This document shows positions 11,656-16,670 of a stretch of 64,000 bases of DNA, piece by piece. The DNA is from a virus. The notes under the pieces are model-generated. The model had not been told where the DNA came from and did no database searches. It worked only from the letters and a program-made list of their open reading frames with translations. Location of the stretch: positions 3,547-67,546 of IMG/VR virus record IMGVR_UViG_3300041409_000623. One strand, 5' to 3'. Both the position numbers and the translations under genes were made by a program. Position 1 is the stretch's first letter. Every line of letters begins with the position of its first letter.

Positions 11656-12485
11656 TCGAAGGCCTCAGGGAAAGCAGATAATAGACTTCGTTGAGCCGTT
11701 CGATTTTTTGACAACTTTTGATAGGTCAAGTCCGTTCCGACCCATCGCCTGCCGTTATTCTCGGCGACCAGACCGACGGTCCCGCTGCCTAAAAATGGAT
11801 CAAATACTAAATCACCAATACGGGAACCAGCAAGGATGCACGGCTCGATGAGCGCCTCGGGCATAGTGGCGAAGTGAGCGCCTGAATATGGTTGTGAGTT
11901 GATAGTCCACACAGAACGTTTATTTCGTGTACCTTGGTTGCTCTTTTCTGCAATCGCTGCAGTGTCGTAATAATACGTTGATGACTTCGTCAATAAAAAA
12001 AGATACTCATGCGACTTGGTTGGCCGATCAGTCACACTCTCTGGCATCGGGTTAGTCTTCGCCCAGATAATGTCCGACCGAAGATACCATCCTGTCGCTT
12101 GGAGAGCGAAGGCAACTCTCCAGGGAACGCCAACTAACTGTTTTGATGTGAGACCTGTTGATTGCTCTCGCTCTGGATTAGTCGCATCACATCCACGACC
12201 GTAAGTTTTTCCGGCAAGTGTTGATCCGTTCAGGCCATTGCGGTTACCTTTCGAACCATACGAGTCGCCGAGGTTGAGCCAGCAAGTTCCGTCATTTCTC
12301 AGTACACGCCAGACTTCAGCAAACACGGTCATGATGCTGGCGACATAGGCTTCAGGTGTCGGCTCAAGACCAATTTGATTACTGTTTCCATAATCACGTA
12401 AGCCCCAGTACGGTGGTGACGTCACGCAGCACTGCACGCAAGCATCGCGGAGTGGTAATAAACGAGCGTCGGCTCGGATGATCAT
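11652..12485 (-). CDS. beta-class N4-cytosine/N6-adenine DNA methyltransferase
   Basis: VTSPPYW near N-terminus, HFATMP, DPFLGSGT near C-terminus. Confidence 0.92.
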   Translation of the reverse strand: MIIRADARLLPLRDACVQCCVTSPPYWGLRDYGNSNQIGLEPTPEAYVASIMTVFAEVWRVLRNDGTCWLNLGDSYGSKGNRNGLNGSTLAGKTYGRGCDATNPEREQSTGLTSKQLVGVPWRVAFALQATGWYLRSDIIWAKTNPMPESVTDRPTKSHEYLFLLTKSSTYYYDTAAIAEKSNQGTRNKRSVWTINSQPYSGAHFATMPEALIEPCILAGSRIGDLVFDPFLGSGTVGLVAENNGRRWVGTDLTYQKLSKNRTAQRSLLSAFPEAFE

Positions 12486-15400
12486 TTCGCCTCAGCCCAC
12501 GTTCGGCCAGTCCCACACTCCCAGATGATCGGTACTTTTGTCGGATAACTTTGTCGATTGAGAATTGTTGAGACCTTTTCCAATGTGTCAGGCTGCGTTG
12601 CATCACCGAGCGCGGCATCATGGTTCGTGATCCGCATGACGAAACCGGTCTCTTTTCGCTCCTTATGAAGCTCCACTAGCTTCATTTTCATCAGGTCGGC
12701 ACCGCCCCCTTGTAGGACTCGGTTAAGACCGATGTAGGTCTTGTAGTTCGTCGGAAAGCGCGAGCGGCGTCCGAGCAGCGTCTTCACGTAGCCGCGATGC
12801 TGGTACTGACGATGTAGCTCGTCGCCCTTACGACAATACTTATCGCACTCCGGCTTGGCGAGATGAGACGCACGATCGAGCAGTTGCCCTGCTTCCGGGT
12901 GCGCGTTCTTGTAGGCGGCCTCGATCTCATGAATCAAGTTGAGACGTTGATCGTTCCAGCGCTTTGCAACGCGTATCTCTTCGCCTTCCTTCTCGGTGAT
13001 GAATCCCATCATCACGGCGAGCTTGATGCTGCGCGCGCCATACTGCGCGGCGAAGTTGTAGTTCTTCGTGTGTGCGTAGAGCATGTCGGGTTTGTATTGC
13101 TGCAGCATCGTTTGCATCTGTCGATGAAACGACATCTTCGGATCATCAACATACGCCTGCAACAACTTGGCGTTGCCAGAATAGTGCACCAGCAATCTAA
13201 ACTCGATCTGCGCGGCGTCGGCTTCGAGATAGTCGCCGCTACCAGGAATAAATAAGCGTCGCGGAAATAGTGAGCAGAGTCCGCCGCAACTCTTAATTCC
13301 TGCCTCACTCGTGTCGTCGCCAAACGCAACATGGTGATTATCGTGATTAGGGACTTGCTGGACTAACCCGATACTGAAGCGTCCGCTAACCGTGCCGCCT
13401 TCGTCGCTGACCAGTTGATTGATGTCGTAGCGGAGAATGCCGTCGGTGATGTGCTCAGGATATGCCTTGAAGATCTTGCTGTTCAGCGACGCATACTGCG
13501 CCGCGCGCTGACCCTTGCGCACGAGCGGGTGGTTGATCTCGCTCAGTTCCGCTTCGGCAAATGAGTCGGGCACCTGCAACGCGAGGTGCTCGAGCAGGCG
13601 CTTCCAGCCGCTGGCCGTGTGCTCGAAGGCGAACCCTGCTTCTTGTGACACCTCGTACATGAGGCTCTCATATTTAACGAGATAGTCGCGTTGAAACTGT
13701 TCGAGCAGGTCCATGTCGATCGGCGACCCGTTCTTCTCCATCTCGACGACGCAAGGTATGACGGCGTCTTCTAACTCCTGAACATCGCGGAGTTCTTGTG
13801 CATCGATCTGTGGATACATCACATCACGAAGTTTTCCCACCAGTTGCGCTGTGAAAATTTCACGTGCGGCTACTTCGCTTGCGTGGTAGGTCGCGTGACG
13901 CGATTCATCCACACGTGGGACGATCCTGAGTGAAGGCAAGTAGTCTTCAGCAAGTACATCAATCTTAAAGCGCTTGCGATGATCGTCGAGCAGCGCGGCT
14001 GTGTGTTGAATGTCGCTGAACGTGCAGCCTTGCGCCTCTAGGTCGATGCCCCACCCACGCGCGTGATGTACATCAAACTTCATCTTTGCGTTGATGATCT
14101 TTTTTCCACGAAGTTCACGTTCAGCCCATCGCTTAATCGTCGGCTCGTCGAGATTGCCGCCAGCAAAAGCGAATGGCAAGAACCGCGTCATGCGGCCGTC
14201 AAGCGTACTCACCGTGACGCCCACCGGCTTCGCGCCACTGGCCCAGTTCAAACCGTCCGTCGCGAAGTTCAAGATGATCTCGTTGATGCCATCCAGCGAC
14301 GGCGGTTCCTGCGCCTTCCACGTCGGGTCGGTGCGTGGCTGCTGCATGCCGAGGAACTGCGCCAGCGATCCGCCACCGTTAGGTGGTGGGTCGCCAGCAT
14401 TTACTACGACGGCATCCACGCCCGAGGATGCCTTCGGCTCGGGGCTAGGCGGGCGTTTAACGGCCGAAGTTGTAGATGTGCCCGCTATCGCCTCGGCCGC
14501 GAGCTTTGGGTCGCCTTTGACGCAAATAATGACGTTCTGGTGCGTCTTTCCTAACTTACGCGATGTTTCAAACTGCTTTGTCACTCGAATCGGCAGGCTA
14601 CCGACCGCCGTTATCAGAATCGCTTCATTGTAGAGCGACGCGCCTGCTGCCATGAACGACGCGCAGGTCAGCGGAACGAACCCGCGATACAACCCGGTCT
14701 GCTTATCACGATATTCACCGATGACGAAGCAGGCGAATCGGTTCGGCTTCAACCGCTCCACTGAGCGCCGGATGATCGAGCGATAAAGACCCACGAACTT
14801 CTCCCACGTCATCGCCGAGAGATCGCTCGGGTCGTCGCTGTATTGCTCGAGGTCGCCATAGGGTGGGCAGGAGAAGATAAAGTCAGCCTCGGGTGCGTCC
14901 TTCAATTTCTCGTTGCTATCACCGACCACCCAGTTGATCGGAGCGTCCGGACAGATCATCTGGCGTTGCGCTTCGTTCGCAGCAATCTGCTCCGGTCGCA
15001 GGTCGATACCATGGTATTGGAATCCGAGCAGACCGGCGACGATACCGCGCACCGAGCCACCTGCAAACGGGTCGACGATCATGCCGCCTGGTGGGCAGAA
15101 CCATTTGTAGCAGAGTTCAGTGAGTACGGGGTCGAAGATCGAGGTGCCCGAGGATGTCTCTTGAAGTTTGAGTGAGACCTCGTCACGACGCGGTGAGCCG
15201 GATGCGAAGGTCAGACCGGTCTTTTGCCAGCCGTCTTCCTCTTTGTATTTTTCTGACGCCGCTGGCGTCATGCGAAAGGCCATATTGTCGCGAACGTCGG
15301 TCGGTGAATCGCCTTTTCGATACGCATCATTCGTGACGCGATGCGTCAGACCGCCGCGCAGGTCTGCCGTCTCTCGAGCCGCCTGCATCTCCGCACGCTT

Positions 15401-15766: not shown

Positions 15767-15990
15767 TTAGACCGCGCTTCCAATGAGCGAACGTCGACTT
15801 CTTGCACGACACCATGCGGCGATTGTAACGCTTCAAGGGCAGATTCAAGATGTTGAACCGCCTCAGCGACGGCCTCATCGCGCGTTGGACCGGTTCCGAT
15901 AATGTGAGCGTTGATGATGTTGTCGCCATCATCGACCCCACACCAGACTTCGTACTGCTGATCGTCACGGTAGATAACAAGACCATTCAT
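15763..15990 (-). CDS. HicB-like small protein
   Basis: GTGPTRDEAVAEA resembles the HicB N-terminal GxTxEEA motif; ATGA overlap with PLP gene. Confidence 0.45.
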   Translation of the reverse strand: MNGLVIYRDDQQYEVWCGVDDGDNIINAHIIGTGPTRDEAVAEAVQHLESALEALQSPHGVVQEVDVRSLEARSK

Positions 15991-16670
15991 TTTGCTACAT
16001 TCCAAAACAGCGCTCCAGGCGTCGCATGCCGCTTGATGAAACGCCACGCCTTCGCGTCATAATTCTTGCAACTCGGAAACGGCGGCAGCTCTCGAGCGTC
16101 GTGCTCGTATAACTCTGGCGCGGTATAGACTATCGCGTGGCCAGCGTCCGGCTCCGCACCGACGCGCACGCCGTAGAAGGTCGCGTCAGGCCACGCCAAC
16201 TGCAAGGCTCGAGAGAGCACACCGCTGCCGACGATCGACCACACTTCCTTCGGCACGACTGGTAAGGCTCGCGCCACGTCAGCCAGTGCCAGAATGAAGC
16301 GTGGGTCGTCGAGACCGAAGGGCAACAAGGTCGCACCAGTCTGCCCACAATAATCTCGCGCTCGGTACTTGACAACGTTCAGATAACCGTGCGGCACCTC
16401 AATGATCTTCGCACCCACTTCTTCGGCTTCGATGGTAAGTGGATGATGCACCTTTCGCTTGGCGCAAAAGATCGTGGCACGCTTGCCGTAGTCACGCGCG
16501 GCATAGGCGAGCGCAACCTGCGCGTAGCCATACACCGGCGAAGGATAGACGTACTCAGTGTTTTGGTTGAAGAGCGCATGTATCGCACGTCGCTTCGTGC
16601 CGCCTGATAACACATCGTCGCGAACGACGAGGATGCCTTCGTGCTCAATGATGATAGGGTCAGCAATCAC
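15987..16670 (-). CDS. PLP-dependent fold-type II enzyme (Trp synthase beta/ACC deaminase-like)
   Basis: VVRDDVLSGGTKRR (PLP Lys), GYAQVALA, VGSGVL phosphate loop, YDAKAW. Confidence 0.82.
   Translation of the reverse strand: MIADPIIIEHEGILVVRDDVLSGGTKRRAIHALFNQNTEYVYPSPVYGYAQVALAYAARDYGKRATIFCAKRKVHHPLTIEAEEVGAKIIEVPHGYLNVVKYRARDYCGQTGATLLPFGLDDPRFILALADVARALPVVPKEVWSIVGSGVLSRALQLAWPDATFYGVRVGAEPDAGHAIVYTAPELYEHDARELPPFPSCKNYDAKAWRFIKRHATPGALFWNVAK

Follow-up and report, generated by a model that had tools for sequence, protein, structure and literature searches.

A phage DNA polymerase fused to a methyltransferase-like domain and linked to a pyridoxal phosphate enzyme: a candidate system for replication-coupled DNA modification

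Results

Organization of the locus

The window analyzed here is a stretch of 64,000 bases from the IMG/VR virus record IMGVR_UViG_3300041409_000623 (67,546 bp, rated 100% complete by CheckV), and our subject is a pair of genes on its minus strand, one encoding a methyltransferase-like domain fused to a family A DNA polymerase and the other a pyridoxal 5'-phosphate (PLP) enzyme. The phage is a soil phage with a complete genome of 67.5 kb, and the pair lies in its replication operon. IMG/VR places the record in its direct-terminal-repeat class, although no identical ends of 50-500 nt were found in our own check of the record; the stretch occurs in one DNA run, from a soil metagenome, and in no RNA run among those listed. 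The genes from about 17572 down to 11254 are chained together by five successive overlaps of start and stop codons, each 4 nt long (ATGA in four cases and GTGA in one), in the order 301-aa open reading frame (ORF), 227-aa PLP gene, 75-aa ORF, 1094-aa fusion gene, SPPY DNA methyltransferase gene and 133-aa ORF. Beyond the chain, downstream, follow genes for a beta sliding clamp, a MazG-like pyrophosphatase and an epsilon-like exonuclease. An earlier interpretation made from the letters without database searches (the sequence-only reading) had described the overlapping start and stop codons correctly, although it had missed the 75-aa ORF between the PLP and fusion genes. The elements that carry the argument are listed below by their positions in the window, with the evidence for each in brackets.

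15987..16670, minus strand: PLP enzyme of fold-type II, M6 gp52 family, 227 aa (phrog_7093, hhalign, AlphaFold 2 (AF2), Foldseek)
15763..15990, minus strand: 75-aa ORF wedged between the PLP and fusion genes (ATGA overlap at each end)
15197..15766, minus strand: fusion residues 1-190, N-terminal region with the motif FPPFTVLNAREGPWQERKRAWL..GIQSEVGR (phrog_15396, alignment)
14483..15196, minus strand: fusion residues 191-428, core resembling S-adenosylmethionine (SAM)-dependent methyltransferases (phrog_12517, profile match to PDB entry 2zie, AF2)
14291..14482, minus strand: fusion residues 429-492, linker rich in Pro, Gly, Ser and Ala (composition, alignment of three fusions, second-assembly contig)
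13559..14290, minus strand: fusion residues 493-736, 3'-5' exonuclease-like domain (NF004397 at residues 541-715)
12482..13558, minus strand: fusion residues 737-1094 and stop codon, family A DNA polymerase of a DpoZ-like clade (PF00476)
11652..12485, minus strand: SPPY DNA methyltransferase of the conventional beta-class type, its translation coupled to that of the fusion gene (PF01555, 1.1e-43; phrog_67; ATGA overlap)

The last of these is the second, conventional methyltransferase gene that the sequence-only reading had placed after the fusion gene. The 75-aa ORF gave no Pfam or PHROG match when searched in a 94-aa version and was not found beside the PLP gene in related loci.

The fusion protein

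The fusion gene is one unbroken ORF (12482..15766, minus strand) that joins a methyltransferase-like domain through a linker to a family A polymerase, as the sequence-only reading had stated. The linker contains 11 Pro, 7 Gly, 7 Ser and 6 Ala among its 64 residues and differs in length among the three aligned fusions. It had been singled out as the place to look for a stop or an indel, and no indel appears there in a contig from a second assembly: this Logan contig of run X1 covers positions 13554-16199 with 0 differences and 0 gaps and, as X1 is possibly the source sample, represents an independent assembler rather than independent data. Related fusions are encoded on four viral contigs, at 39-65% overall identity to the window protein. 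The closest, L133 (also L004), encodes a fusion of the same type with 1088 aa and 65% identity overall; those of L138 (also L005), L139 and L141 are 1134-1154 aa long, and their N-terminal methyltransferase-like domain is divergent and carries SPPY. Two more were found among protein clusters formed at 50% identity, namely P0222 (methyltransferase-like, exonuclease and PolA domains) and P0299, the latter a protein of 1572 aa with the same three domains, split by an intein with a LAGLIDADG domain.

Within the N-terminal half, residues 193-428 match phrog_12517 (6.5e-97, annotated as of unknown function) and phrog_498 (2e-70, "DNA methyltransferase"). Residues 65-116 match the "ParB-like" phrog_15396, which here covers only the motif that trails ParB in relatives; a ParB/Srx domain was looked for at the fusion N-terminus and Pfam gave no ParB_N match. 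The motif in question, FPPFTVLNAREGPWQERKRAWL..GIQSEVGR, is conserved across the methyltransferase-like family (alignment A2).

In the C-terminal half, DNA_pol_A (PF00476) matches residues 737-1092 (1e-21; 77.8 bits against a cut-off of 34.3) and phrog_17 matches residues 503-1093. The best PDB match of the polymerase is 7pbk, and alignment to 7pbk and Taq revealed motifs A, B and C. Motif C reads HDA; since 7pbk itself carries HDS, an inactive polymerase was rejected as an explanation of this sequence. A Z-genome (DpoZ) assignment was likewise rejected: the NCBIfam DpoZ model gave 137.5 bits against a cut-off of 500 and PurZ (PF00709) was not found in the genome, so that the operon, with its MazG-like pyrophosphatase, is not a Z-genome cluster. 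Compared with its counterparts in L004 and L005, the polymerase domain contains a 14-residue insertion with two Cys (around residues 820-833). The Exo I motif of the exonuclease-like domain is degenerate, reading NFA in the window, NFE in L004 and DFE in L005. A separate gene for a "DNA polymerase exonuclease subunit" (phrog_192, 6905-7912) is conserved in synteny together with the beta clamp, and proofreading may come in trans from it.

The methyltransferase-like family

The sequence-only reading had noted a motif I of the form DPFAGGSVRG and CPPY in place of the usual DPPY, NPPY or SPPY. Both features are present, the latter as FSCPPY at motif IV, and both belong to the family: a DPFAGGSVRG-type motif I, GDS and FSCPPY.DLE.YS are invariant in 27 aligned members (alignment A4), the cysteine being C110. 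Pfam N6_N4_Mtase (PF01555) gave 26.5 bits for the window protein, below the cut-off of 26.7, which some relatives pass. The family profile matches solved DNA N4/N6 methyltransferases, with 2zie as the top match and CcrM, MboIIA and PvuII also present. The match to 2zie comes in two swapped pieces, the motif IV part of the profile aligning with the N-terminal part of the chain and the motif I part with its C-terminal part, where DPFAGGSVRG aligns with the DPFAG.. motif of 2zie. This order, motif I before motif IV, makes the family a circular permutation of the beta-class N4/N6 DNA methyltransferases. The AF2 model of the core has a class I methyltransferase fold (mean predicted local distance difference test score, pLDDT, 77).

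While a scan of viral contigs with the single methyltransferase-like domain sequence returned 1 locus, a profile scan returned 577 relatives. This large family, most of it viral, comprises 2067 representative clusters at E <= 1e-30, and the domain is rare in cultured phages (29 of 50,697 GenBank phage records). We know of no characterized member, nor of any CPPY member characterized as a methylase. At many loci the gene lies just upstream of terminase genes; L067, L076, L095, L101, L113 and L117, for instance, have the CPPY gene, with or without a PLP gene, directly upstream of the small or large terminase. These terminase-side genes thus sit at the packaging end of the genome, as opposed to the replication module in the window phage.

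The PLP enzyme

A fold-type II PLP enzyme with an RDD...GGTK signature had been proposed upstream of the fusion gene, and this assignment stands for the 227-aa protein encoded there (15987..16670, minus strand). Pfam PALP remains below threshold (23.8 against 35 bits), and the AF2 model (pLDDT 95.5) matches fold-type II PLP enzymes in Foldseek, with 1j0a on top (query TM-score, TMq, 0.80) and D-cysteine desulfhydrase and diaminopropionate ammonia-lyase next in rank. K26 of the GGTK motif, the lysine predicted to form the Schiff base, does not vary among 44 aligned sequences; in the family, there is little or no variation at R17, D19 and G23-G24-T25-K26, in a GSG loop and in a C-terminal F-P-S..D.K...W-N signature.

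The protein belongs to the family of phage M6 gp52. It matches phrog_7093 (1.3e-36), of which gp52 is a full-length member (2.2e-159), and hhalign of the window PLP family against gp52 gave a probability of 98.4% (E 4.9e-15) with K26 aligned to K36 of M6; the C-terminal signature PFP..YD.KAW...FWN is common to both proteins. The kinship to the DNA-adduct decarboxylases of M6 and ViI that the sequence-only reading had surmised is thereby borne out. This homology was established with profiles, as tblastn of the PLP protein against GenBank phages, with the threshold relaxed to E <= 10, returned only 3 records, neither M6 nor ViI among them; gp52 as a tblastn query directly matches 24 related loci at E <= 1e-3. 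In excerpts of the work of Lee et al. (NAR 2022; PMC8989533), purified M6 gp52 and ViI gp226 remove the carboxyl group of amino acids borne by thymine in DNA, the substrates of gp52 being C5-linked; K36 is proposed as the aldimine lysine and 1j0a served as the template for a gp226 model. Decarboxylation of DNA adducts by the window protein is a predicted activity.

Genes of the M6/ViI pathway in the complete genome

We searched the complete genome for the genes that install such adducts. In the phage DNA hypermodifications known to rely on a PLP decarboxylase, the starting points are 5-hydroxymethyl-uracil, a kinase and an amino-acid:DNA transferase (ADDT). Pfam gave no match in the complete genome for ADDT (PF18724), 5-hydroxymethyl-deoxyuridine (5-hmdU) DNA kinase (PF18748) or thymidylate synthase/hydroxymethylase (PF00303), and BLAST gave none for M6 gp51, gp53, gp54 or gp58. 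The view that genes for 5-hydroxymethyl-uracil synthesis and its kinase are missing here thus extends from the letters of the window to both searches of the whole genome, and a thymidine pathway of the M6/ViI type was rejected, its installing genes not having been found.

Linkage of the PLP gene and the methyltransferase-like domain

A search of viral contigs with the PLP protein returned 45 loci, some of them near-duplicates. The methyltransferase-like domain is adjacent or fused in 31, and a divergent polymerase-fused form occurs in 1 (L005); 1 of the remaining loci is cut by the contig end and 12 are without a methyltransferase-like partner. Among the 54 PLP-domain proteins of at least 399 aa, 42 also hold the methyltransferase-like domain, in three fusion architectures: the PLP domain is inserted in 34, C-terminal in 7 and N-terminal in 1. 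Where inserted, the PLP domain sits at a single position of the methyltransferase fold, namely between helix B and strand 3. The co-occurrence that the sequence-only reading had asked for is therefore present from the PLP side. From the other side, among the best 80 of 577 viral relatives in the methyltransferase-like profile search (whose locus search itself used the CPPY pattern), a PLP gene is adjacent in 28 and fused in 1; the rest are taken up in the Discussion.

A third conserved gene of the module was considered and rejected: clustering of neighbors across about 125 loci gave no gene conserved with the pair, the largest other cluster being terminase (11 loci). Prediction of a complex between the methyltransferase-like core and the PLP protein, both entered as alignments, gave a score of 0.00, which is evidence in neither direction. 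One protein, P0322 (1277 aa), combines methyltransferase-like and PALP domains with a 2-oxoglutarate oxygenase resembling Asp/Arg beta-hydroxylases (Asp_Arg_Hydrox, PF05118, 5e-08), a triple fusion that looks like, and hints at, a multi-step tailoring pathway in some phages.

The polymerase clade and its exchangeable N-terminus

A polymerase scan with three aligned fusions as the query returned 13 loci with a relative of the window polymerase. Four of them carry a methyltransferase-like domain at the N-terminus, each with a PLP gene 0-1.7 kb upstream (5/5 with the window included), whereas none of the nine without this fusion has a PLP gene within 4 kb (0/9). The closest polymerases after that of L133, at 62-65% identity, are those of L134, L135 and L136, each with an N-terminal extension of 590-650 aa. 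These extensions match Pfam TAGT (PF20691, TET-associated DNA glycosyltransferase) at 7.9e-41, 1.1e-33 and 7e-29. The genes lie as follows.

L134, 2291-5971: TAGT-PolA fusion gene
L135, 2246-5896: TAGT-PolA fusion gene
L136, 2060-5785: TAGT-PolA fusion gene

Tet_JBP and thymidylate-synthase-like genes were not found in these three records, and we know of no description of TAGT-polymerase fusions. The operon is syntenic across the group, in the order orf225, variable module, polymerase, orf130, clamp, orf104 and exonuclease. As TAGT occupies the same position on the polymerase in these sister phages, the N-terminus would be a dock for DNA-modifying enzymes, and the phage group may use it as an exchangeable one, occupied either by the methyltransferase-like domain with its PLP partner or by TAGT, in which case the genome would receive its modification during copying. 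This exchange is the strongest argument that the N-terminal domain of the window protein acts on DNA in connection with replication, a role predicted from sequence comparison, and it fits a replication-coupled modification.

Neighboring genes

Two further genes of the operon are given for context.

16667..17572, minus strand: 301-aa ORF without an assigned function, first of the chain (phrog_15934, C-terminal part only)
9752..10840, minus strand: phage-encoded beta sliding clamp, syntenic with the polymerase across the phage group (PF00712, PF02767, PF02768)

The 301-aa ORF had no match in the 45 PLP loci and weak matches in L135 and L145, and is thus not a conserved part of the module. The MazG-like pyrophosphatase (8931-9302; phrog_5658, 1.7e-54) belongs to the same operon and is conserved in L139 too.

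Discussion

A proposal for the function of the pair

From these observations we infer a DNA substrate, a transferred group, an order of steps and a coupling to replication. The proposal that we put forward tentatively, rating it somewhat short of an even chance, is that of a replisome-tethered two-enzyme DNA modification, in which an amino(carboxy)propyl group derived from SAM would be placed on DNA and trimmed by the PLP enzyme. The flexibly tethered transferase would put the group on a base as the DNA exits the polymerase, and the PLP enzyme would then trim the same adduct on the new phage DNA. An enzyme of the gp52 type needs a primary amine beside a carboxylate, its sole conserved partner here is SAM-binding and SAM carries such a group, which is why an amino(carboxy)propyl group is favored. 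To our knowledge, SAM is the only amino-acid-bearing donor for a methyltransferase fold, so that the most economical chemistry would transfer the 3-amino-3-carboxypropyl group and then decarboxylate it, leaving a 3-aminopropyl base. Taken as a specific order, with the group first placed on a base of nascent DNA and decarboxylation taking place on the DNA, this scheme is rather unlikely; alternatively, SAM might be decarboxylated first and the aminopropyl group transferred afterwards.

Some enzymes with a methyltransferase fold do transfer the aminocarboxypropyl group. In microcin C biosynthesis, MccD, which has such a fold, moves this group from SAM and the PLP decarboxylase MccE converts it to aminopropyl. 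We know of no sequence signature that separates SAM-dependent aminocarboxypropyl transferases from methyltransferases, and of no 3-aminopropyl base in nature.

Several observations weigh against the proposed modification. The nearest solved relatives of the transferase by sequence are ordinary DNA N4/N6 methyltransferases, and in the literature searched, which covered few subscription journals, no experiment on any member of the methyltransferase-like family was found. There was no PLP gene within 3.5 kb in 51 of the best 80 methyltransferase-like loci, and the 5 long records in which no PLP gene lies nearby, 3 of which have a completeness of 90% or more, do not carry one elsewhere either (0/5). 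On a tree of 112 domains, whose sample is biased by the 45 loci collected with the PLP protein, the distribution of the PLP gene requires 23 changes or more, at least 6 of them forced by well-supported branches. Closely similar cores thus function whether or not a PLP gene is there, and they may simply methylate. SPPY or SPPF variants occur in three polymerase fusions and several PLP fusions, so that CPPY is not required for the pairing. In the models, the insertion site of the PLP domain appears to lie on the side of the Rossmann fold away from the cofactor. Finally, the 12 partnerless PLP loci fall into three lineages, and the PLP gene of L047 adjoins a thymidylate-synthase-like gene and so looks M6-type.

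The partnerless loci are L015-L017, L022, L023, L025 and L027; L042 and L044-L046; and L047. In one of these lineages the PLP gene lies between T4-like clamp-loader genes, which precede it, and a PD-(D/E)XK exonuclease gene; in another it lies behind an upstream ORF of 640-700 aa without a family match.

By the counts of loci and the tree, the PLP gene is an optional companion, often gained and lost, of a transferase that also works alone. For the sequence-only reading, which had advanced replication-coupled hypermodification and expected the two genes to travel together, the outcome is divided. The domains, the kinship to gp52, the missing installing genes and the linkage are as it would have them; CPPY is dispensable, and most CPPY genes, in the transferase-side sample, come without a PLP gene.

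Alternative explanations

A plain N6-methyladenine or N4-methylcytosine methyltransferase, fused to the polymerase so as to shield nascent DNA from restriction, is a serious candidate, which we nevertheless regard with some doubt. The PLP enzyme would then be a helper or unrelated, and might act on SAM, S-adenosylhomocysteine or a small molecule. This explanation draws on the solved relatives (2zie, CcrM, MboIIA, PvuII) and on the 51 loci where the same core occurs and a PLP gene was not found; automatic names and Pfam label the family as DNA methyltransferase, many of its loci lie beside terminase genes in the manner of phage orphan methylases, SPPY variants stand for CPPY in the same contexts, and the same operon contains an ordinary second methylase. 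It offers, however, no role for a PLP enzyme whose only studied relatives act on DNA-bound amino acids, and it leaves unexplained both the three independent fusion architectures and the 5/5 versus 0/9 pattern in the polymerase clade. Nor does a characterized CPPY methylase known to us speak for it, and the domain occurs in only 29 of the 50,697 GenBank phage records.

It is more doubtful still that the PLP enzyme trims an adduct installed by another phage or host enzyme, with the methyltransferase-like domain then methylating the amine or a neighboring position; we consider this improbable. Excerpts of PMC8989533 describe thymidine hypermodification clusters as combining tailoring enzymes combinatorially, and such mixing would allow for it. 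The PLP family also occurs in contexts without a methyltransferase-like gene, and several ORFs of the operon lack an assigned function. Against a separate installer stand the lack of any third gene conserved with the pair across the loci compared and the negative searches for ADDT, kinase and hydroxymethylase genes in the complete genome.

A third explanation, to which we attach very little weight, makes the cysteine of CPPY a nucleophile on pyrimidine C6 in the style of C5-methyltransferases, leading to a C5 mark, such as a 5-alkyl pyrimidine, that the PLP enzyme would process. The 27 aligned members and the 80 loci, the latter from a search that used the CPPY pattern, without exception have cysteine where D, N or S is usual, and the C5 linkage of the gp52 substrates in the excerpts of PMC8989533 would agree with such a mark. 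The fold and motifs, on the other hand, are those of amino-methyltransferases and not of C5-methyltransferases, and the presence of SPPY or SPPF in the same fused contexts suggests that the residue has its usual hydrogen-bonding role.

That the long ORF is an assembly chimera or hides a missed frameshift joining two genes is refuted as far as sequence data show and has next to no probability, given the indel-free second assembly across the linker and the same fusion in L133, L138, L139, L141 and the clusters P0222 and P0299.

Significance

With the replisome-tethered modification as our preferred reading, the locus joins a member of the gp52 decarboxylase family to a SAM-dependent transferase and nothing else. 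Should the product indeed be an amino(carboxy)propyl base, two genes would suffice for a new route to positively charged DNA, SAM would be put to a new use on DNA, and the pair might provide a compact enzymatic tool for DNA labeling. Quite apart from the chemistry, the polymerase fusions suggest that some phages tether DNA-modifying enzymes to the replisome, which would explain how a genome can be protected from host nucleases at the moment of its synthesis. The module is widespread (the 2067 clusters given above count the transferase family), and its presence in cultured phages makes the question directly testable.

Comparison with known systems

The M6 and ViI systems are the closest on the PLP side. 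The window protein falls in the PHROG of M6 gp52 (7093), shares with it a lysine (K26, corresponding to K36 of M6) and the C-terminal signature, and is of fold-type II with 1j0a as the best template, as for ViI gp226, but is only 24% identical to M6 gp52 and shorter (227 versus 278 aa). In contrast to M6 and ViI, the window genome is without an amino-acid:DNA transferase, 5-hmdU DNA kinase or hydroxymethylase, and the partner of the PLP enzyme is a SAM-methyltransferase-like domain.

Among cultured phages, gp1 of Erythrobacter phage vB_EliS_R6L, a protein of Erythrobacter phage ZS04 and gp70 of Pseudanabaena phage Pam4 fuse the same two catalytic domains, and Microcystis phage Mae-JY30 has a split form with the genes side by side. 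Listeria phage B054 and Enterococcus phage phiFL3A are cultured examples in which the CPPY gene occurs and a PLP gene does not. Over the best aligned parts, the methyltransferase-like part of the window protein is 47.9% identical to that of Pam4, 52.5% to ZS04, 54.5% to R6L and 63.5% to Mae-JY30, and the PLP protein is 51-54% identical to those of R6L, ZS04 and Mae-JY30; the PLP-like insert of Pam4 gave no tblastn match at 1e-5 with the window PLP protein. The fused proteins of cultured phages have the PLP domain inside the methyltransferase domain, often with ParB, whereas the window has a separate PLP gene, no ParB_N and a polymerase fusion. In excerpts of PMC5463345, R6L gp1 is treated as a CcrM-like methylase and no chemistry is reported.

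With the beta-class N4/N6 methyltransferases (PF01555; 2zie, CcrM 6pbd, M.MboIIA, M.PvuII), the transferase shares the motif I and IV regions and the class I fold, but it differs in having motif I before motif IV, Cys in place of D, N or S and a Pfam score just below the cut-off. The TAGT-PolA sister phages (L134, L135, L136) have the same polymerase clade, synteny and an N-terminal DNA-modifying domain, yet this domain is a glycosyltransferase and there is no PLP gene. The DpoZ polymerases (7pbk) are the best NCBIfam and PDB match and resemble the window polymerase in motif C (HD[A/S]), despite the score far below the DpoZ cut-off and a genome without PurZ. Microcin C, with MccD and the MccE N-domain, is a functional analogy only: there, the acceptor is a peptide-nucleotide phosphoramidate and the PLP enzyme has another fold.

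The sequence-only reading knew of no described system with this architecture, and the same holds for the literature searched, in which we found no PLP/methyltransferase pair for DNA modification, no polymerase-methyltransferase fusion and no phage DNA with aminocarboxypropyl or aminopropyl groups. What is new, compared with these systems, is that the two genes are separate and translationally coupled, that the transferase is fused to a replicative polymerase and that a DNA glycosyltransferase takes its place in sister phages.

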